Source: a virus (taxonomy: Duplodnaviria; Heunggongvirae; Uroviricota; Caudoviricetes). Taken from it: a DNA stretch of 38,934 nucleotides. The position numbers and the translations under genes are program-made. This document shows, piece by piece, positions 2,970-17,854 of the stretch (positions are counted from its first letter, which is position 1; the number at the start of each line of letters is the position of its first letter). The notes beneath the pieces were generated by a model, which ran no database searches, was not told where the DNA came from, and worked only from the letters and a program-made list of their open reading frames with translations. The stretch lies in IMG/VR virus record IMGVR_UViG_3300046500_000231, positions 74,070 to 113,003 of that record; one strand, given 5' to 3'.

Positions 2970-3021
2970 TTGATACAAAACTTGATAGCTTGATACCAAG
3001 GTATCAACATACCAAGGTATC
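2970..3021. promoter_or_regulatory. Putative par operator / centromere-like repeats
   Basis: TTGATA at 2970, 2982 and 2990. Inverted repeat TTGATACC-AA-GGTATCAA at 2990-3007. ATACCAAGGTATC directly repeated at 2993 and 3009. Lies upstream of parA. Confidence 0.6.
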
Positions 3022-3106
3022 GAACGTGCTGTTCGGCTTGCAATGTTTCTTGTATGAACATCCACTATGGATTACGCTACCGGCAAAACTTCGTATGGAG
3101 AAGGCT

Positions 3107-3778
3107 ATGAAAAAAGCTAGGTCCGTAACTATGGTGGGAACAGAAAAGGGAGGTGTGGGCAAATCTACCTTTACACAAAACTTGGCATCAATCCGGTCGG
3201 GGCAGGGGCGGCGGGTCGCCGTGTTCGATCTGGACGGCCAGAATTCGACGTTCAAGTGGGCTGCCGACCGACGTGAGGCAGGCGGTTTGCCCGAGGTCCA
3301 CGTCAAGCGTATTGCAAAGGGAAAGAAGCTCGACGAGGACGAGTTTGCCGAGGAATTGGGCGAACTGACCGAGGAATATGAGGACGTTTTCATTGACGTC
3401 GGCGGGCAGGACTCGGACGTGTTCCGGTGGGGACTCGCGGTGGCCGATCACGTCGTCGTGCCGCTCATTCCATCGCCCGCGGACCTCAACACCGTGCCCG
3501 ATCTGTTCGATCTGGTCGGCACCTACACCAAGAAAATCCCGATCCAAATCGTGCTCAATCAGGCCGATAAAAGGAAACTGATGACGCAGGCGATGATCGC
3601 TCAGATCGAGCCTTTCGAGCACCGGCTGCCGCGCATGAAGATGCTGGTGGCGGCTCGCGAGAGCTACAAGTTTGCGATGGCGCAGGGCAGGGGAGTGGCG
3701 GAGTTGACTGGCCGGTATTGGGACGCGGCGGCCGCCAACGAGATGAAAGACCTTTATTTGGGAGTGTTCTCGTTATGA
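3107..3778 (+). CDS. parA: ParA partition ATPase (type Ib)
   Basis: Deviant Walker A KGGVGKST, then FDLDGQ, FIDVGG and ADHVVVP. No N-terminal HTH. ATG 3107 has a GGAGAAGG RBS. Confidence 0.93.
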   Translation: MKKARSVTMVGTEKGGVGKSTFTQNLASIRSGQGRRVAVFDLDGQNSTFKWAADRREAGGLPEVHVKRIAKGKKLDEDEFAEELGELTEEYEDVFIDVGGQDSDVFRWGLAVADHVVVPLIPSPADLNTVPDLFDLVGTYTKKIPIQIVLNQADKRKLMTQAMIAQIEPFEHRLPRMKMLVAARESYKFAMAQGRGVAELTGRYWDAAAANEMKDLYLGVFSL

Positions 3779-5884: not shown

Positions 5885-6523
5885 CTACATGCGGCCCCAT
5901 CCGAGCGCGGCAGGTCGGCTGTAATGCGGGTTCTTCATTTTGAGCCAGTCGCGTGTGCGGCCGGCGGTGTAGGGCGCATCGAGCCGCTTTGCCATCACAC
6001 CCTCGAGGTCGAGCGTCGCCGCGTGCTGGAACGCGAGTTCCCCATGTTCTTCGACGCCGCCCGTATAGACGATGACCTTCGTGTCCATGAAGCTCTCACG
6101 CAGCATCGCCTTGCGCTCAAGCAGCCGCATGCGTCGCACGTCCTCTCGACCGGAGGCGAGCATATCGAACACGTAGAGCCTGGCTGGCTGTTCACGAGCA
6201 GCAGCGCGCACCCGCAATGGAACCCGAATGCGCGCCCGCTGCTGGAGGAGCTCGAACGACGGCCGCCCATCCGCTTCGTCCACCGTGAGTTCGGCATCCC
6301 ACACGAAACTGCCCGGCACCGCCTCAAGCGCGGCGACGATATCGGGAAACGAGCCGTTCAGCGAGTTGCCGTTGCGGGACACGAGCGCCACCTGATCGCC
6401 ATCCTTGCGCACCAGCGCGCGGTAGCCGTCGTATTTGATTTCGAAGATCCAGCCTTCGCGCGTGAACGGCGCCCGGGCGAGCGTCGCCAGCATCAGATGC
6501 GTATGGTCAATTGGCGGGATCAT
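5885..6523 (-). CDS. Minimal ATP-dependent DNA ligase (LigD/LigC-type adenylation domain only)
   Basis: From ATG 6523: WIFEIKYDGYR (KxDG), DAEL, YVFDML, EGVMAKR and WLKMK. Ends about 15 aa after motif V, with no OB-fold. Confidence 0.85.
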   Translation of the reverse strand: MIPPIDHTHLMLATLARAPFTREGWIFEIKYDGYRALVRKDGDQVALVSRNGNSLNGSFPDIVAALEAVPGSFVWDAELTVDEADGRPSFELLQQRARIRVPLRVRAAAREQPARLYVFDMLASGREDVRRMRLLERKAMLRESFMDTKVIVYTGGVEEHGELAFQHAATLDLEGVMAKRLDAPYTAGRTRDWLKMKNPHYSRPAALGWGRM

Positions 6524-6707
6524 TGACCGCTTCCGGCAGACGAGCACTGACGAAAGCGAGCTTCGCCCAGGCGTTTGTCGGGTCGCAGCCGGAGTAAGCG
6601 CAAAAGTGCTCAAAGTCCTCGAGCACCGTATGACCGCCAGCGTTGCGTTTGAGCACGCGGCCCTCCAGAATGTTCGCAAGCATGGCAGACGGGTCTTTGT
6701 AGCACAT
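6507..6707 (-). CDS. Small hypothetical protein upstream of the minimal ligase
   Basis: ATG 6707 with GGAGG RBS (MCYKDPSAMLANILEGR...). Overlaps the ligase start. Confidence 0.55.
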   Translation of the reverse strand: MCYKDPSAMLANILEGRVLKRNAGGHTVLEDFEHFCAYSGCDPTNAWAKLAFVSARLPEAVNDPAN

Positions 6708-6783
6708 GGCGTCCTCCGCACGGTTACGCTTACTATGAGCAAACTGGATTCCATGCCAGAAAATGCGCCAACCGGGAGGCAGC

Positions 6784-6948
6784 ATGGCAGAGAAATGGAC
6801 CTGCACGCTCTGCGGCTACACAGCCGAGGACATTGAGGAATTCCATGCCGCGCACCATCGGGACGATGGACTCTACATGGAGGAGCCGATCTGTCCGAAC
6901 TGCGGAGCCGAAGATTCGGCAGTTCGTGTCGGCCCGATTCCAGAGTGA
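6784..6948 (+). CDS. Small zinc-ribbon / rubredoxin-like protein
   Basis: MAEKWTCTLCGY...PICPNCGAE has two CxxC pairs. GGGAGG RBS. Confidence 0.7.
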   Translation: MAEKWTCTLCGYTAEDIEEFHAAHHRDDGLYMEEPICPNCGAEDSAVRVGPIPE

Positions 6949-7031
6949 TAATCATTATTATGTCAATCGAGGCATTCGATGACGCGCCGACGTGCCCGCG
7001 CTATCATCGGGAATGATCCAGGGTGACTGAG

Positions 7032-10091: not shown

Positions 10092-10282
10092 TTCTTCGGC
10101 TCCTCGTGAATGACTTCGCCCAGCGCCGAGTCGATGCGCAGCACCATACCGCCCGGCGGGCACTGAGCGACAGCCTGATAGCGGCGCACATACACCTTCA
10201 CGCCGCTATAGCGCTTGTGCTGCTCGCCTTGCTCGTTGAGCACGATGAAGAGTTCCTTGATGGGGCTTTTGGCGACTTTCAT
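10088..10282 (-). CDS. Hypothetical phage protein
   Basis: 64-aa ORF coupled to the ligase stop. Confidence 0.65.
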   Translation of the reverse strand: MKVAKSPIKELFIVLNEQGEQHKRYSGVKVYVRRYQAVAQCPPGGMVLRIDSALGEVIHEEPKK

Positions 10283-11667
10283 GCCGTCTCCTCGACCTTC
10301 TTGCCGGTGACTGCGTTGGCGCGAGCAGCCAGCACGTCTTCAAGGCTGTCGGCGGCGTATTTGTCGATGCGATACCAGTCTTCGGCCATGCGCGGCAGAA
10401 AGAGGCTATGCAGCGGGTTGCTGTCGGAGGGATACATGACCTCGTTGAAGCGCACCGGCCAAATGCGGTCGAGGAACGCTTCGCGATTCGCGTCGATGGC
10501 ATCGCGCAGCTTTTCGTTTTTCACCGCCACATAAACGCGCAGCTTGTCGTCGCGGGTGCGCATGCCCACGCGCCCTGCCCGGCCTTCGTTCTTCGTGCCT
10601 GCTTCGCCGTCGAGGATCTCGAACGACTCCAGATCGACGTCGATCTCCAGCTTGAGCTTGACCACATCGGGGTTGCCGCTGGAGGTGTCTTTCCAGCCAC
10701 CGTCGCCGTTCTTAATGACCGTGCCTTCCTTGCCTTCGATCTGCAGGCTTGCGCAGTGCGCATAGGCTTCGTCAAGCGAATGAACGACCTTCGTCGGGAT
10801 CAGTCTGACCGCCTGATTGTCACGCCCGTGCAACTGCTGGATCAGTCGTGTAATGCGACGGCGATATGGCGTATCGACCTTACCCTTCGGCACCGCCGCT
10901 TCGAGCGGGATTTGATCCCACGCATAGAACACCGGCAATTCATTTGCCGCGAAACTCCCGCCGGCAAGCACACTGTTCAGAATGCCGTTACCGGTGGCAC
11001 GGTCCGCAATCACGCCGTCGATAAGCACGACGATTTCGCCGTGTGTTTGCGTGCCCTTGTTGAACGTCTCGCGGATTTCGGCTTCCATCTCCGGGAAAGC
11101 CTCGATCGGCAGTTCATTACCCTGGCGCGTGGTCAGACGCACGATACCTGCGTTGTCGTGGTCGACGTTCGTGAAGGCGCCGTCAGCCTTGTGCTGACTG
11201 AAGACACCCTCTTCCCACGTCCACTTGTCGAACTTAGCCTTCTCCGGCAGCACGCAGCGCATATAGGGGAACGCGCGAATCGTGCCCTTCTTCGCCTTGT
11301 TGGCGGTTTCCGCCGAGAAGCCTGCGCGCAGGTCTTTCTTGATGATTCGCCAGAAGAGTTCGGATGATTCCGGCTCCAGGCGAATCATTTCGCCCGTGAC
11401 AGCCATGATCGCGTTGTTGCCGGTCACGCGGCGCTCTGCCAGATCAGCGATGAGACGCCAGGTGCCATCGTCAAACAGTTCGTCGCCGATCGCGCCTGCG
11501 ACCGGGCGCTTGCTGATGCCGTAGCTCACGAGCGGGTCGAGTGAGGCGACGAGCACGCGCTCAAAGTCGGCGTCGACGAGATAGGCGGAGACGAGCGCCT
11601 GCTTGTCGTTCTTGCTGCTGGTTCTGGCGATCAGGTCGATCACCTGAAAAATGTCCTTCGAGTTCAT
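10279..11667 (-). CDS. lig: Phage ATP-dependent DNA ligase (full length)
   Basis: SQHKADG (KxDG), THGEIV, FYAWDQI, EGKEGTVIKN and VKLK, with an N-terminal helical domain and a C-terminal OB-like region. Confidence 0.9.
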   Translation of the reverse strand: MNSKDIFQVIDLIARTSSKNDKQALVSAYLVDADFERVLVASLDPLVSYGISKRPVAGAIGDELFDDGTWRLIADLAERRVTGNNAIMAVTGEMIRLEPESSELFWRIIKKDLRAGFSAETANKAKKGTIRAFPYMRCVLPEKAKFDKWTWEEGVFSQHKADGAFTNVDHDNAGIVRLTTRQGNELPIEAFPEMEAEIRETFNKGTQTHGEIVVLIDGVIADRATGNGILNSVLAGGSFAANELPVFYAWDQIPLEAAVPKGKVDTPYRRRITRLIQQLHGRDNQAVRLIPTKVVHSLDEAYAHCASLQIEGKEGTVIKNGDGGWKDTSSGNPDVVKLKLEIDVDLESFEILDGEAGTKNEGRAGRVGMRTRDDKLRVYVAVKNEKLRDAIDANREAFLDRIWPVRFNEVMYPSDSNPLHSLFLPRMAEDWYRIDKYAADSLEDVLAARANAVTGKKVEETA

Positions 11668-12390: not shown

Positions 12391-12663
12391 TTACCAGGTG
12401 CCCCACTCGGGGCGGAATTCTTCGAACTCTTGCCGCGCGTCAGCATGGGCGCGCAGCATGTTGGCGAATGTGTTGATGACGGCCTTCTTCTCGGCGGCCT
12501 GGCGGATCACGCTGTTGAGGCGAAACTTCGCGTCGAACTCGACCAGCTTTCGAACGTCAGGCGACATGCCGGCGAGCAGTTCTTCTGCACCCTCACGGCG
12601 TCCGTCATCGCGGCCCTCGTAATACGCCGCGTTCTCTGCTTCGAACGGATCAGGCTCAATCAC
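12391..12663 (-). CDS. Hypothetical protein ending in WGTW
   Basis: GTG 12663 overlaps the upstream stop (GTGA). Confidence 0.65.
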   Translation of the reverse strand: MIEPDPFEAENAAYYEGRDDGRREGAEELLAGMSPDVRKLVEFDAKFRLNSVIRQAAEKKAVINTFANMLRAHADARQEFEEFRPEWGTW

Positions 12664-13127
12664 CACGACCCCCACGCTTCGCCGCGATCGACGTTCTCCT
12701 CGACAGCGGGCTTACGCGCCGGACGTGCTTCAATCGGCACGTCGGCCGTCGCATCAAGCGCCAACTTCGTGAATAGCGCCTCGCGCGTGGCGGGTCCGGT
12801 GTAGTGCCGCTCCTTCTTGAGCGCGTTCGAATCCCATGTGCCGCCCTTTGAGCTGGCGATGTAGCCGAACGTGGTCGAGCGATCGATTTGGTAGTCGCCC
12901 TTCTGCTTGGCGTTAAATTGCCTGGCCGCGCTGTCTGTCATGGCCGGGCCGGAGTCGTGCTCGATGATCTTCATCTGCCCGCCGCCGGACTTCATCTGCG
13001 CGACCGGACCCCAGCGGCGCACTTCGACATAGCGACGCGCGATCGGGTTGGTGAACGCGATGATTTCGTAAAACTTAGTCCCGCCCGAGTGAATCTGCAG
13101 TGTAGGGCTAACAGTGATCGTTGACAT
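12660..13127 (-). CDS. WGR-domain-like protein ending in WGSW
   Basis: ATG 13127 with AGAGGA RBS. KFYEI...VEVRRWG...KQKGDY resembles the WGR nucleic-acid-binding fold. Confidence 0.65.
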   Translation of the reverse strand: MSTITVSPTLQIHSGGTKFYEIIAFTNPIARRYVEVRRWGPVAQMKSGGGQMKIIEHDSGPAMTDSAARQFNAKQKGDYQIDRSTTFGYIASSKGGTWDSNALKKERHYTGPATREALFTKLALDATADVPIEARPARKPAVEENVDRGEAWGSW

Positions 13128-13197
13128 TGATCGTTCCTCTTTCGCGCTAGACGTTGCGCGTCTCAATGAAATTCATTCTACGGTGCGCACATCGGGA

Positions 13198-13218
13198 AGT
13201 ATAGTCAGTAATGACTAT
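13198..13218. promoter_or_regulatory. Perfect operator AGTCA-GTAA-TGACT with leftward -10-like TATACT
   Basis: Operator at 13203-13216. The 22-mer TATAGTCAGTAATGACTATTGC is identical to 17099-17120. Confidence 0.75.
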
Positions 13219-13233
13219 TGCCTAGAATAAAAT

Positions 13234-14310
13234 TTAACGCCCCTTCGTGAGTCTCATGCGCGTCGCAGTCAGCGGATTGATGGTGGTGGCTTTCCAGAAG
13301 GCGTCGCGCACGACAGACGGCGGCACTTCGTTGGGATCGCGCCCTTCCGGGAGCACCGCCACGCGCGCAGTCAGCCCGATCGATTTCACCTTCAGCGCCG
13401 CCTCAATGGCCGCGTCGATCGCTTTGGGTTCGCCATCCCACATGAACGTAACCGCCTCCAGCCCGCGCTCCCTGAGCGTGGCGAGCTTTGCCATCTGCGA
13501 GGCGTCGTCGCCGTGCGAGAGGTGCTTGCCGAAGCTGCCCACCGGCACCACGTCGCGCAGTTCCGCCTGCTCATCGAGCGCGATCTTGGTGGCGGCGACG
13601 TCGAACACCCCTTCGCCGATCACGATGTGCTTGGCGTTGAGCGCGTTCTGGCCGTTGTAGAGGACCGAGCCCGTCGAGGCGAAGCCCGGCGGGAACAGGT
13701 ATTTCTTGTCCGCCTCGCCGGTGGTGTCGCGCCCCTGGAAGGTCACGAGGTCGCCCTCGAGGTCGAAGACGGGAATGATCACGCGATGGGCGTAGTTCTG
13801 CGCACGCGTTTTGCCGTCATCATCCTTGTAGAAGAACTTGCCGTCGAGCGAGAAGCGCAGATGGAAGTATTGAGCGATGCGCGCCGTGATGTTGCGGTTG
13901 TCCAGATACTTGAGGTTGCGCCCGTTGTGCGGCAGCGCGATCGACTTCGGCAGCTTCAGTTCCGTGTCCAGGTTCACCGCGACGGCGACTTTCTTCTTCG
14001 GCCGCCAGCCTTGCGTGCGCGCAAATGAGGTGATGTGGTCGATCACCTCACGATTGCTGTCCATGCCAAGCTGCGCCCGAATGAGCGTGAACTTGTTGAA
14101 CTTTTCTTCGCACACGAAGCAGTTGCCAAGACCCGTCTCCAGCCCTACGTAGACTTTCCAGCTTGAATTGCCGCAGCATGGGCACTCCTTGATATTGGCC
14201 TGGCGACCGCGAGCCCCACGAGTCTGCTTATAGGCGATACCCTGGTCATCGAGCCAATATTCAATATCGAGGCTCTCAAGCGCCTCTTGCAAATCGCCTC
14301 GATCGTTCAC
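13234..14310 (-). CDS. DNA primase (Zn finger plus TOPRIM)
   Basis: CPCC...CFVC zinc finger, FQGRD, GEGVFD and MWDGE. GTG at 14310 (or 14313) overlaps the HNH stop. Confidence 0.88.
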   Translation of the reverse strand: MNDRGDLQEALESLDIEYWLDDQGIAYKQTRGARGRQANIKECPCCGNSSWKVYVGLETGLGNCFVCEEKFNKFTLIRAQLGMDSNREVIDHITSFARTQGWRPKKKVAVAVNLDTELKLPKSIALPHNGRNLKYLDNRNITARIAQYFHLRFSLDGKFFYKDDDGKTRAQNYAHRVIIPVFDLEGDLVTFQGRDTTGEADKKYLFPPGFASTGSVLYNGQNALNAKHIVIGEGVFDVAATKIALDEQAELRDVVPVGSFGKHLSHGDDASQMAKLATLRERGLEAVTFMWDGEPKAIDAAIEAALKVKSIGLTARVAVLPEGRDPNEVPPSVVRDAFWKATTINPLTATRMRLTKGR

Positions 14311-14825
14311 CACGTCGCCCCTCGCTTAATTTTGCTCACAGTCGCTTGCGTGACGTCATGTGCGGCCGCAATAAGGCGCTGCAGCTCTCCTTCCGCGAGC
14401 CGACGACGAATATCGGCCACCGCTTCTTCGTTCAACTTGGCAGACGGATTTCTCTCGCCCTTCGGGTCCGTTCCGTGCAGTGCGCGATCCATCGCATTCT
14501 CGAGGCGCGTGCCATACCGGAGATTGCTCAGGACGTTGTTACCCTTGTTGCCGTCACCGTGACACACCTCAAGCCCTTCAGGGCACGGGCCTTCGAAGGT
14601 GAGCATTACGAGAATATGGACGGCCCACACCTTCTGGCCGTTGTTATGCAGCGTAACCATGTGATAGTTCCAGCTATTCGGCGCGGCCTTTAGAACCCTG
14701 CCCGCCTGCAATCTGTGACCGCCGTGCCACAGTCGTTGCATACGGTCGAGACTTCTAATTCTCCCGAGATTGGACGCTTGATAAAGCCCTTCATACCCCG
14801 GAATGTCGCGCCATTCTTCGATCAT
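14307..14825 (-). mobile_element. Free-standing NUMOD4-HNH homing endonuclease
   Basis: EEWRDIPGYEGLYQASNLGRIRS (NUMOD4), VHILV and CHGDGNKGNNVLSNL (HNH). Confidence 0.9.
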
Positions 14826-15004: not shown

Positions 15005-15204
15005 GCCGGCCGTCCGCTGACCTGGCCGGCCGTGTCCAGCAATTCGCCGATGCGGCGGCTCACTTCGGCGGCCGCGCCGACGGCATGAGGGTTGCCGCGG
15101 TTTTCTTCCATGACGTCCTCGCAGGTCGCCTGCCCTTGCGCAAGCCCAATCTCGTAGCCTTGCGCGAAGCACTCCATTTCCTTTTTGTGGTTGAAAACGC
15201 CCAT
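15001..15204 (-). CDS. Hypothetical protein
   Basis: TAATG overlap with the helicase stop. Confidence 0.6.
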   Translation of the reverse strand: MGVFNHKKEMECFAQGYEIGLAQGQATCEDVMEENRGNPHAVGAAAEVSRRIGELLDTAGQVSGRPA

Positions 15205-16613
15205 TACTCGACCCTCAAAATGCTCTTGATGAACGTCATCGTCGCCATGTCCTGTTGGATGAACACGGTGAAGCCCGACTCCTGATTTCGAGACGCCGCG
15301 AAATACAGCCGCGCCTCGTTCTTGCTGCGCTCCTCGTCGGTGATGTTGATGGAGATCACCAAGTCGGCAATACGAATGCGGTTGAAGTCTTCCGCCACGT
15401 GCTCAGCTTTCGCCACCGTCGACTTGAAGCCTTCACGGTTGGTCTGCGTCGCAGACAGCATGGCGAAACCCTCGACCAGCGCGATATCGCGCATGTCCGT
15501 ATAAATCGACTTCGAGTTCTCCACCGTGTCGGGCGTGCGGATATTCGGCGACATAATGTCCAGGTAGTCGCACACCACAATGTCGAAGATCACGCCCTTC
15601 GCCTTGTAGCGGTCGATCAACGCCTGCATCTTGTTGGGCGTGAACTTGCCCGCCGGGTGGACGCTGATCTTGAGCATCCCGGCCTTCGCCCGCAGCGCCT
15701 TGATCTTGCTGTCGGTGTCGTGGATGGCCTTGCCGAGCTCCTTGATCTTGTTCTCGGCGATGGACGCGTCGAGACGCATGGAGATGATTTCTTCCTGCAG
15801 CTCCAGCGACACGTAGAGGACGTTCTTGCCGGCGAGCGACGCGTTCTTGGCGAAGTTGAGCAGCGCCGTCGACTTACCGGCCTTCGCCCCGCCCATGAAC
15901 AGCGTCAATTCGCGCCGCCCCCAGCCCTTGTGCATCAGCAGTTCGTCGAGCTTGGGCAAGCCGCTCGAAATCCCCTTCGGCGGCGTCTTGCCGCTCGCGG
16001 CGTCCAGGCGGTCTTCCGTTCGGGCCTCGATGCCGCCCCAGTAGTCGTAGTCGTCGTCATCCTCGTTCAAGCCGACGTCATACGCGTCCTTAATGGCCTT
16101 CAGGATCGGATCGAACTTCTTCTTCTCCAGAAGGCTCACCGAGGACAGGATTGCGTTGCTCACCGCCTGGTGCCGGGCGAACTCCGCAACCTTCTCAGCC
16201 ACGTAGTCACGATCGCCCACGTCGCCGTCCTTGAGCACCTTGAGCACGCGCACCACTTCGCCGGCGAAGTCTTTCTTCATCCGGCCGCTGGTGATTTCGT
16301 CTCGCAGCAGTGTCGAGATAACCGGGAACTCGGGCACGCGCTTGAACCGATCGAAATAGCGCTTGATCAGATCCACGAGCCCCGCTTCACCGGCATTCTC
16401 GAAGTAGTCGGGCTTGAGCAGGTGCGAGGTGCGGCGCATGAATTCCGTATCGCGCAGCACGAGCGTGGCGATCTTCGACTGGAATTCCTCGTCGAACTCG
16501 AACTTGGCGACTTCCTCCGACTCAGGTGCGACCTCAACGGCTGCACCGCTGAAGGCCTTGCCGACCATTTCCGCGACCGACTCCTCGACGCTCGGAATGG
16601 TGGCGTCGCTCAT
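15204..16613 (-). CDS. dnaB: DnaB-like replicative helicase
   Basis: Walker A GGAKAGKST, YVSLE, VVCDYLDIM, SATQTNR and ADLVI. Confidence 0.92.
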   Translation of the reverse strand: MSDATIPSVEESVAEMVGKAFSGAAVEVAPESEEVAKFEFDEEFQSKIATLVLRDTEFMRRTSHLLKPDYFENAGEAGLVDLIKRYFDRFKRVPEFPVISTLLRDEITSGRMKKDFAGEVVRVLKVLKDGDVGDRDYVAEKVAEFARHQAVSNAILSSVSLLEKKKFDPILKAIKDAYDVGLNEDDDDYDYWGGIEARTEDRLDAASGKTPPKGISSGLPKLDELLMHKGWGRRELTLFMGGAKAGKSTALLNFAKNASLAGKNVLYVSLELQEEIISMRLDASIAENKIKELGKAIHDTDSKIKALRAKAGMLKISVHPAGKFTPNKMQALIDRYKAKGVIFDIVVCDYLDIMSPNIRTPDTVENSKSIYTDMRDIALVEGFAMLSATQTNREGFKSTVAKAEHVAEDFNRIRIADLVISINITDEERSKNEARLYFAASRNQESGFTVFIQQDMATMTFIKSILRVE

Positions 16614-17041
16614 TGGTAGTGGCCTTCTTCTGCGCGCTCGGCGACTTCAGCGACGGGAGCCAGCTGCACACGCGGGCGCGGCAGGGGCTTGAAGCGCTGG
16701 ATCGCGTGTTTGAAAATCACGTGCGTGTCGCCCGAGACTTCCAGCGAGATCGTGTATTTGTCGTGCGCCCGAATCTTGCCGGTCAGAATTTCTTCCTCGT
16801 CGCGCATGTAGACGACGATCTGTGCGCCCGACTCGTGCAGCGCCTTCAAGAACGCTTCGTGACCGGTCGGGGCGCCCTTGACCTTCGGCCGGGCGGGACG
16901 TTGCGCGCGGGTGCCGACGTAATCCGGGCGAGCGGTCAGGCGCGGGCGGCTCGACGGGATGGAATCGTCATCGCAACGGGCCATGTTGCGGCCTTCGCGC
17001 AGTTGCTCGGCACGTGCTTGTTCGGGGGTGAGGTAGCTCAT
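16610..17041 (-). CDS. hfq: Hfq (Sm-like) homologue with an Arg/Pro-rich N-terminal extension
   Basis: FLKALHESGAQIVVYM...LTGKIRAHDKYTISL...VIFKHAI versus E. coli FLNALRRERVPVSIYL...LQGQIESFDQFVILL...MVYKHAI (recalled). ATG 17041 has a GGAG RBS. Its stop overlaps the dnaB start. Confidence 0.85.
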   Translation of the reverse strand: MSYLTPEQARAEQLREGRNMARCDDDSIPSSRPRLTARPDYVGTRAQRPARPKVKGAPTGHEAFLKALHESGAQIVVYMRDEEEILTGKIRAHDKYTISLEVSGDTHVIFKHAIQRFKPLPRPRVQLAPVAEVAERAEEGHYQ

Positions 17042-17096
17042 GAAACTCTCCAACAACGGGTATGGGGTGAAATCGAACGTCGAAACTGACACTCAC

Positions 17097-17124
17097 ATTA
17101 TAGTCAGTAATGACTATTGCTCAA
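17097..17124 (-). promoter_or_regulatory. Leftward promoter with a perfect operator in the spacer
   Basis: TTGAGC (17119-17124), 16 nt, TATAAT (17097-17102). AGTCA-GTAA-TGACT at 17102-17115. Confidence 0.75.
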
Positions 17125-17854
17125 TGCTCGCGTATGTGATGGCCTGCTCGACGACTCCCGGAGGAAACTCGCGCAGCGCGGCTTCGATGCGCAGCACCCC
17201 GTGCGTGTAGAGCGCGGCCGCAAGTGCGTAGTGGTGGTGCCGGCGCTGCTTGATCTGCGCAACGAGAAACGCTTCATAGGCGATCTGGTCGGCGTGACCG
17301 AACCAGTTTTCGGCCCGATACCGCTCGTCGTGGCAAATCTGCAGGCTATTGCGGCACTCCTCCTCCCAGGCGAGCACGAGGTCCGCGAGCATCTCCTCGT
17401 TGGTGTTCATGTGCGAGGGGCGCGGCGCGTGGTGCCAGTTGTGGGCGATCTTCCAGTTCATGGCAAAGCGCAGAAAGAAGTCGTAGCGCACGCCGAGCTG
17501 GTCGGCCGTCTGCCGGAGCTGCCAGAGCGATTTCTTCTCGCGGGCTTCCAGCACGTCGGGGCCGCCCTTGAACGGCTTCATGAAGCGGCCGCGCTCGTGA
17601 TCGAGCGTGACGATCATGAAGTTCTGATACGCCTTCTGGTAGCACTGGGCGAACAGGTAAGTCGCCTTTGTCGGGTGCATGCGCCGGTAGTCGAACCACT
17701 TAGTCGTGAGCAGTTCGGGTTCCCGTTTCAGGAGCCGCCCTTCGATGTTCGCAATCGCCTTGACCTCGCAGTGCAGGAATGACAGATCGTGGCCGTAGAA
17801 GTCCCCGAACCATTCCGCGAGCTTGGGTTCGTCGACTTGGGTAACTTGGGTCAT
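17114..17854 (-). CDS. Hypothetical phage protein upstream of the hfq/helicase block
   Basis: 246-aa ORF with good codon pattern and RBS (KWFDYRRMHPTKATYLF...). Confidence 0.8.
   Translation of the reverse strand: MTQVTQVDEPKLAEWFGDFYGHDLSFLHCEVKAIANIEGRLLKREPELLTTKWFDYRRMHPTKATYLFAQCYQKAYQNFMIVTLDHERGRFMKPFKGGPDVLEAREKKSLWQLRQTADQLGVRYDFFLRFAMNWKIAHNWHHAPRPSHMNTNEEMLADLVLAWEEECRNSLQICHDERYRAENWFGHADQIAYEAFLVAQIKQRRHHHYALAAALYTHGVLRIEAALREFPPGVVEQAITYASIEQ

Follow-up and report, generated by a model that had tools for sequence, protein, structure and literature searches.

Why would a virus place a gene for an Hfq-like protein directly in front of the gene for its own replicative helicase? 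The question is raised by a stretch of 38,934 nucleotides (the window) that forms the final 38.9 kb, positions 74,070 to 113,003, of the 113,003-bp IMG/VR record IMGVR_UViG_3300046500_000231, a virus of the Caudoviricetes. The record is estimated to be complete, with a GC content of 60.8% and a terminal repeat of 127 bp, and its host is probably among the Burkholderiales, judging from a Paraburkholderia contig with a 57%-identical homologue of the Hfq-like protein. A preliminary description of the window had offered three roles for this protein: an RNA chaperone for phage small RNAs (sRNAs), a dominant-negative subunit that poisons host Hfq, or an Sm ring repurposed for single-stranded DNA (ssDNA) or replisome work. 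We report that the gene and its place before the helicase are conserved throughout a clade of related elements, and we tentatively favour a role linked to replication. The gene and its parts are as follows.

16610..17041, minus strand: Hfq-like gene (P0001), 143 residues; Pfam PF17209 at 39.5 bits, AlphaFold2 (AF2) model and Foldseek matches, homologues at 49–99% identity
16967..17026, minus strand: conserved N-terminal helix, residues 6–25, with the motif R-x-E-Q ... E-G-x-R-(M/L)-A; predicted local distance difference test (pLDDT) score 75–84
16871..16966, minus strand: disordered basic linker rich in Arg, Pro and Lys, residues 26–57; low pLDDT
16676..16870, minus strand: Sm/Hfq core, residues 58–122, with helix 1, strands 1–5 and the Sm2 motif FKHAI; alignment, AF2 and Foldseek
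16610..16675, minus strand: disordered C-terminal tail, residues 123–143, and stop codon; AF2

The Pfam Hfq profile PF17209 matches residues 62–119 with 39.5 bits (E 4.1e-10), above its curated gathering score of 27 bits, and gives 40.9 bits in a six-frame search of the genome. All of the Sm1 and Sm2 motifs first read from the sequence (FLKAL, VVY, LTGKI, DKYTISL and IFKHAI) are found, and a phmmer search of PDB sequences returned Hfq proteins only, with those of Bacillus subtilis and Listeria as the best matches. We built an AF2 model from an alignment of 14 homologues (alignment A1). The Sm core (residues 61–119) is modelled at pLDDT 84–92 and the N-terminal helix at 75–84, and the linker and tail are disordered; the core consists of a helix at 61–71 followed by strands at 74–79, 85–93, 97–102, 105–110 and 114–119. 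The expectation of an Sm fold is supported by this model and by Foldseek, with which the top 50 PDB matches were Hfq in 50/50 cases, at target-normalised template-modelling scores of 0.70–0.90 and mostly with a root-mean-square deviation of ~1–1.5 Å over ~59 residues. Identity to any solved Hfq is ~22–33%, and the betaproteobacterial Hfq of Herbaspirillum, at 26%, is no closer than the Gram-positive ones. The Rof family gave no match to the protein in a Pfam scan at E up to 1, which returned Hfq only. By sequence and predicted structure the protein is a genuine member of the Hfq family of Sm proteins, and it would presumably assemble into a homohexameric ring. Its Arg/Pro-rich N-terminal extension, seen from the outset, is real and spans ~57 residues; the conserved helix at residues 6–25 within it had been missed.

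The gene probably starts at ATG 17041, because the longer alternative, GTG 17092, would be located upstream of, or right at, the point where transcription is predicted to begin. The sequence GGAGAG stands just 5′ of this ATG (17051..17046), and close homologues share the N-terminus MSYLTPEQ, in agreement with it. Ratios of nonsynonymous to synonymous substitution (dN/dS) of ~0.17–0.46 against six relatives, with dS near saturation, indicate that the gene is under purifying selection.

To define which surfaces of Hfq persist, we aligned 49 distinct family members with E. coli Hfq from the K-12 record; positions are given in E. coli numbering. In the proximal pocket, Q8 is replaced by His and D40 is Asp in all members (49/49 each), Q41 is replaced by Lys in 43/49, the F42 position is aromatic (Tyr, Phe or Trp) in 47/49 and Y55 is replaced by Phe in 48/49; K56 and H57 of the Sm2 motif are Lys and His in 49/49. 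In the window protein FKHAI occupies residues 110–114, and the pocket keeps the aromatic Tyr96, K111 and H112, with His61 in the place of Q8. The rim arginine patch of Hfq is required for annealing (PMC3753642). The window protein has HESG where E. coli has RRER, as originally noted, and the loss extends to the whole family, with Arg at none of the positions R16, R17 and R19 in 49/49 members. At the distal position Y25 we found Glu in 27/49 and Tyr in only 4/49, the window protein (Tyr78) being one of these four. The acidic DEEE loop singled out in the preliminary description is present in the window protein, where RDEEE aligns with the E. coli NGIK loop plus one extra residue, but it is restricted to the subclade of the window. 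The loop between strands 3 and 4 carries insertions of variable kind across the family.

The net charge of the core averages −0.5 per protomer over the 49 members, versus +2 for the E. coli core, and the 35 residues preceding the core have a mean net charge of ~+4 across the family. The basic linker (residues 26–57) is the segment that evolves fastest. In the N-terminal helix Q8, R10, E12, Q13 and G17 (here in window-protein numbering) are invariant in alignment A1, and roughly two thirds of the members of the wider family have the helix motif. The proximal-pore pocket thus appears to be the only one of the three nucleic-acid surfaces of Hfq that has been retained. With the annealing arginines of the rim absent and the distal site apparently lost, a classical sRNA–mRNA matchmaker role is unlikely, and the loss of these surfaces across the family speaks in the same way against a chaperone for phage sRNAs.

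We next consider the position of the gene. Its TGA stop (16612..16610) overlaps the ATG of the DnaB-like helicase (16613..16611) as ATGA (16613..16610), as first described, and the helicase Shine–Dalgarno sequence GAAGG is embedded in the last codons of the Hfq-like gene. The C-terminal ‘EEG’ tip, considered as a protein motif, was rejected, being explained by the Shine–Dalgarno sequence in those codons. A word-index search identified 14 Hfq-like homologues with 49–99% identity, of which 14/14 match PF17209, and scanning IMG/VR with their alignment yielded 61 loci. The order PhoH, p2500 (the upstream neighbour, of protein family PHROG 2500), Hfq-like protein, DnaB and primase, all on one strand, was found in 60/60 IMG/VR loci that extend far enough. 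The distance from the Hfq-like stop to the helicase start is −10 to +10 nucleotides (nt) in 63/63 loci, and the ATGA overlap itself is common to 20/63.

As this search had started from the Hfq-like protein itself, we also conducted a survey seeded with the helicase, using the best 80 of 254 helicase relatives (45–93% identity), 78 of which had enough upstream DNA. An Hfq-like open reading frame (ORF) ending at the helicase start was present in 78/78 of these usable loci. The survey of gene order that had been proposed with the initial observation therefore finds the slot before the helicase fixed. A profile search of 1.84 billion representatives identified 172 clusters (at 50% identity) with E of 1e-10 or better, with proteins of 81–166 residues. 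Direct searches of INPHARED phages, by tblastn with the Hfq-like protein and by megablast with the window DNA, gave no matches, so relatives were reached through the helicase and through profiles.

One candidate correlate of the Hfq-like protein was discarded: an acidic N-terminal extension of the helicase with the motif SVAxMIG is common in Hfq-bearing phages and missing from SSU5, but several Hfq-bearing loci lack the motif. A match in eight stretches to P0105, a protein of 1,365 residues, was spurious and reflects a Big_9 repeat protein.

The region upstream of the Hfq-like gene contains the following elements.

17097..17124, minus strand: sigma-70-like promoter, TTGAGC (17124..17119), 16-nt spacer, TATAAT (17102..17097); consensus scan, 10/12 matches
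17101..17116, unstranded: perfect palindrome TAGTCA-N4-TGACTA, overlapping the promoter spacer and −10 element
17042..17096, minus strand: predicted 5′ leader with the Shine–Dalgarno sequence GGAGAG and a UUUCGA box near +11; sequence
1206, 1309, 13202, 17101, 18836, 22064, 22086, 22482, 27961, 34334 and 34615: copies of the palindrome in the window

The ATG of the Hfq-like gene lies ~50 nt downstream of the promoter. The palindrome occurs in 11 copies (two or fewer mismatches) in the window versus 0.28 expected, and in 43 copies in the 113-kb genome (32 outside the window), where it marks intergenic regions; ~19 of the 43 have an attached −10-like element. The layout AGTCA-N4-TGACTATAAT stands directly upstream of the Hfq-like gene in 15/15 inspected relatives. 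The motif looks like a phage-specific promoter/operator consensus common to related phages. An operator-controlled promoter of the gene's own had been proposed; the promoter and the palindrome are real, but with 43 copies in the genome the operator is not private to this gene. With the promoter upstream in 15/15 relatives and the next palindrome at 13202, the Hfq-like gene is predicted to be the first of a transcription unit extending by way of the helicase as far as the primase.

The UUUCGA box (~+11 to +20) occurs in 9/22 distinct leaders, against 0.39 in shuffles, a count that is inflated by relatedness; the nine are those of the window and of relatives L010, L011, L024, L037, L041, L043, L046 and L052, and the box could be a regulatory or binding site. 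A leader hairpin with U-tract, considered as a conserved Hfq site, was dropped, as it showed no enrichment over shuffles.

Three things are conserved: a single U-type pocket, a basic arm, and translation strictly coupled to that of a hexameric helicase. On these grounds we favour a protein that serves the replication module as an accessory; by binding single strands rich in U or T it would tune or assist the helicase and primase, in their action or their expression. We hold this tentatively and at somewhat less than even confidence. A ring-forming Sm/Hfq protein would have kept the proximal-pore pocket, which in Hfq holds uridine-rich 3′ ends, and would have gained a flexible basic arm and an N-terminal helix. 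As the putative first cistron of the helicase–primase operon, and through translational coupling, its synthesis would accompany that of the hexameric DnaB-like helicase and scale with it. Its ligands may be U/T-rich single strands such as the 3′ ends of primer or leader RNA, or exposed ssDNA, and strand binding would then assist or tune helicase and primase, at the level of action or of expression. We infer both the ligand and any tie to the helicase protein. Among the three functional ideas of the preliminary description, a replication-linked Sm ring appears to fit the gene order best.

Several observations weigh against an accessory of the replication module. The Hfq-like protein diverges faster than DnaB (68% versus 93% identity to the counterparts in L010), which would not be usual in a subunit held tightly in the replisome. 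In characterised Hfqs, the retained pocket is the site for RNA 3′ ends. A search for longer Hfq–DnaB fusion proteins found none, which is weak evidence. Salmonella phage SSU5 and Rhizobium phage RHEph10, which are more distant, have the p2500–DnaB–primase layout with no gene in the Hfq-like slot, so the protein is dispensable for the core machine and an indispensable or essential loader is excluded. A position before the helicase can also mirror common timing alone.

A more specific form of the replication-module accessory, which we consider unlikely, is that the ring serves in the replisome itself, docking by its N-terminal helices and basic arms onto the DnaB-type hexamer or the strand that this encircles. 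A docked Sm ring would load or gate the helicase, or couple it to priming, and would be the DNA-replication counterpart of the relationship of Rof and Hfq with Rho, with an independent origin in archaeal plasmids. A complex prediction for DnaB (alignment A2) with the Hfq-like protein (alignment A1) gave a score of 0.00, which we counted neither for nor against binding. The idea that the protein substitutes for a missing single-stranded DNA-binding protein (SSB) was rejected for want of differential support: no PF00436 SSB was found in the genome, and the Hfq-less SSU5 and RHEph10 likewise have none. A search with PF10991 found no match in the genome or in the controls and is hence uninformative.

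Some of the same evidence would suit a stand-alone post-transcriptional regulator, whose ring binds transcripts of the phage or the host at U-rich 3′ ends or in leaders and protects, represses or sequesters them, and for which the slot before the helicase would reflect no more than early or middle timing and dosage. We regard this as the main rival, only a little less likely than the replication-module accessory. The conserved residues match exactly the RNA 3′-end pocket of Hfq; the nearest solved relatives, of B. subtilis and Listeria, also have no arginine-rich rim, so that the protein resembles the poorly annealing Gram-positive Hfqs; it outpaces its neighbours in evolutionary rate in most comparisons, the replication enzymes included; and the recurrent UUUCGA box in its own leader could be autoregulatory. 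Timing alone, however, fails to explain why the helicase lies within 10 nt in 78/78 and 63/63 loci, searches of the window for Rfam RNAs and tRNAs gave none, and the leader hairpin with U-tract does not exceed shuffles.

It is less probable still that the protein antagonizes host Hfq, as a dominant-negative subunit in host hexamers or as a sponge for host sRNAs, and so disables stress or defence regulation; we consider this very unlikely. Fold and Sm2 interface motif are those of Hfq, RNA bound to a protein without rim and distal face would be non-productive, and an element-borne Hfq, pXO1 Hfq3, has been characterised in vivo (PMC5348863). Yet the protein shares only ~22–33% identity with solved Hfqs, including the 26% to the Herbaspirillum protein that makes it no closer than the Gram-positive ones. 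The Hfq core is highly conserved, and family members that are only 32–70% identical to one another are a poor fit with docking onto it. A poison subunit would need neither an intact pocket nor linkage to a helicase, and the dominant-negative idea of the preliminary description falls short in explaining neither the conserved RNA pocket nor the constant helicase neighbour. Inhibition of the host termination helicase Rho in the manner of Rof, giving read-through of long phage operons, would have precedents, as inhibition of Rho or association with it is on record for the Sm-like Rof and for Hfq (PMC11018607) and phages are known to target Rho, for example with P4 Psu (PMC3737525). This seems to us extremely improbable: the Pfam scan and the top structural matches point to Hfq throughout and not to the Rof family, and the idea leaves unexplained why the gene is coupled to that of the phage helicase.

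Comparison with known systems places the family closest to bacterial Hfq. With the proteins of the B. subtilis, Listeria and Staphylococcus aureus type (PDB 3ahu/3hsb, 4nl2 and 1kq1) it shares the Sm fold, the Sm2 motif FKHAI, the pocket residues D40, a Lys of the K41 type, an aromatic residue at 42, K56 and H57, and an arginine-poor rim. It differs from bacterial Hfq in the invariant His for Q8, zero rim arginines, an unconserved Tyr25 and a neutral-to-acidic core, in a 57-residue N-terminal helix and basic linker instead of the usual C-terminal tail, and in its location, on a phage and constantly just ahead of a replicative-helicase gene. Hfq3 of Bacillus anthracis has an ordinary short Hfq architecture. 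It is likened to the phage protein solely as an extra Hfq copy on an extrachromosomal element, pXO1 (PMC5348863).

Plasmids of Thermococcus and Methanocaldococcus carry a zinc-finger (ZnF)-Hfq-like gene in the transcription unit of a helicase, for which a role in replication was proposed (PMC3543421). These also combine an Sm/Hfq-like protein of a mobile element with an extra N-terminal module and a helicase in the same unit; they differ in that the gene is downstream of the helicase and the module is a zinc finger, and the likeness is one of architecture and gene context. Rof (YaeO) is likewise a small protein with an Sm fold, and it works by binding a hexameric helicase of the RecA type and regulating it. 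It lacks the Hfq Sm2 motif, however, and acts on Rho, an RNA helicase of the host, rather than on a DNA helicase. Rho, a hexamer, is a target of Rof and of Hfq alike (PMC11018607), and with the archaeal plasmids (PMC3543421) this parallel makes a partnership of Sm protein and helicase credible.

Two more divergent relatives, in other elements of the SSU5 supercluster, occupy the same slot. In Pseudomonas phage nickie, gp117 (89 residues) lies between the p2500 homologue and DnaB and aligns by hhalign with a probability of 72% (E 3e-5); it differs in scoring 23.4 bits, below the Pfam cut-off, and in having lost the Sm2 His, and is annotated as hypothetical. The 112-kb Acinetobacter baumannii plasmid pYFY27.1 has a 143-residue ORF in this slot, next to the RepM initiator gene, with an hhalign probability of 96.9% (E 2e-10); it too is below the Pfam cut-off, at 21.1 bits, and annotated as hypothetical. 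Separately, the 109-kb plasmid pACPOL2 of the acidobacterium Acidisarcina polymorpha (NZ_CP030842.1) has an unannotated Hfq-like ORF (L152:3501-3773) with a core 39% identical; it adjoins an integrase and an insertion sequence (IS) element with no helicase nearby, a context unlike that of the phage family.

The neighbours of the Hfq-like gene in the replication module are listed here.

17114..17854, minus strand: p2500 (PHROG 2500), upstream neighbour, 245–246 residues; PHROG 2500 at E 2e-65
15204..16613, minus strand: DnaB-like replicative helicase, 469 residues; Pfam DnaB_C, PHROG 19 at E 6e-76
14307..14825, minus strand: NUMOD4/HNH homing-endonuclease gene, between helicase and primase; Pfam NUMOD4 and HNH_3
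13234..14313, minus strand: DnaG-like primase, the final gene of the unit that can be recognised; Pfam and PHROG matches

The p2500 gene is likewise carried by SSU5, RHEph10 and nickie. Its AF2 model is all-alpha (pLDDT 93.9), with only uncharacterised relatives in the AlphaFold DB and no structural match in the PDB (best Foldseek E 1.1; best VIA Z-score 5.7). Relatives L005 and L006 lack the NUMOD4/HNH gene in the slot between helicase and primase. In these close relatives the helicase is followed by a gene of the Sequestin family (82 residues) and PhoH by an Acb2/Tad1-hairpin gene, so that small genes of anti-defence type are interspersed in the replication module. The DnaB-like helicase at L040:3819-6632 has 937 residues, and its alignment to the window helicase resumes at residue 696, an insertion of intein size. 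The replication region of the window also encodes a WGR-domain protein (12660-13166), and ATP-dependent DNA ligase domains occur in two genes, at 5885-6955 and 10279-11667 (both minus strand; 103 bits versus 29 bits).

Whether the element is itself a phage-plasmid, as the preliminary description had it, can be judged from its gene content and relatives. A place in the SSU5 supercluster of phage-plasmids is plausible: the window has a ParA-like gene at 2990-3778, the genome has ParB_N matches, a tyrosine integrase was found nowhere in the genome, and the helicase clade is present on 924 PLSDB plasmids. It counts against this that L005 lies inside a 449-kb Paraburkholderia contig and that L006 and L012 lie inside a 156-kb contig classed by IMG/VR as ‘provirus’; some relatives may be integrated or co-assembled with host DNA and not free plasmids.

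Few bacterial RNA regulators have been studied as thoroughly as Hfq, and a phage lineage that ties a stripped-down Hfq to its replicative helicase is undescribed in the literature searched; the view that a helicase-coupled phage copy was uncharacterised is in keeping with a full-text search, which found no paper. The module also contains, in p2500, a universal member whose predicted structure gives no hint of how the module works. The family is large and present in clinical Acinetobacter phage-plasmids, and is thus accessible to genetics. If the protein works with the helicase, an Sm ring would join the known accessories of the replisome, and the parallel pairing of Hfq-like proteins and helicases in archaeal plasmids would be explained. 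If it is an RNA binder instead, it would be a natural ‘proximal-face-only’ Hfq that helps to separate the roles of the surfaces of Hfq, and would suggest that phage replication genes are controlled at the level of RNA.

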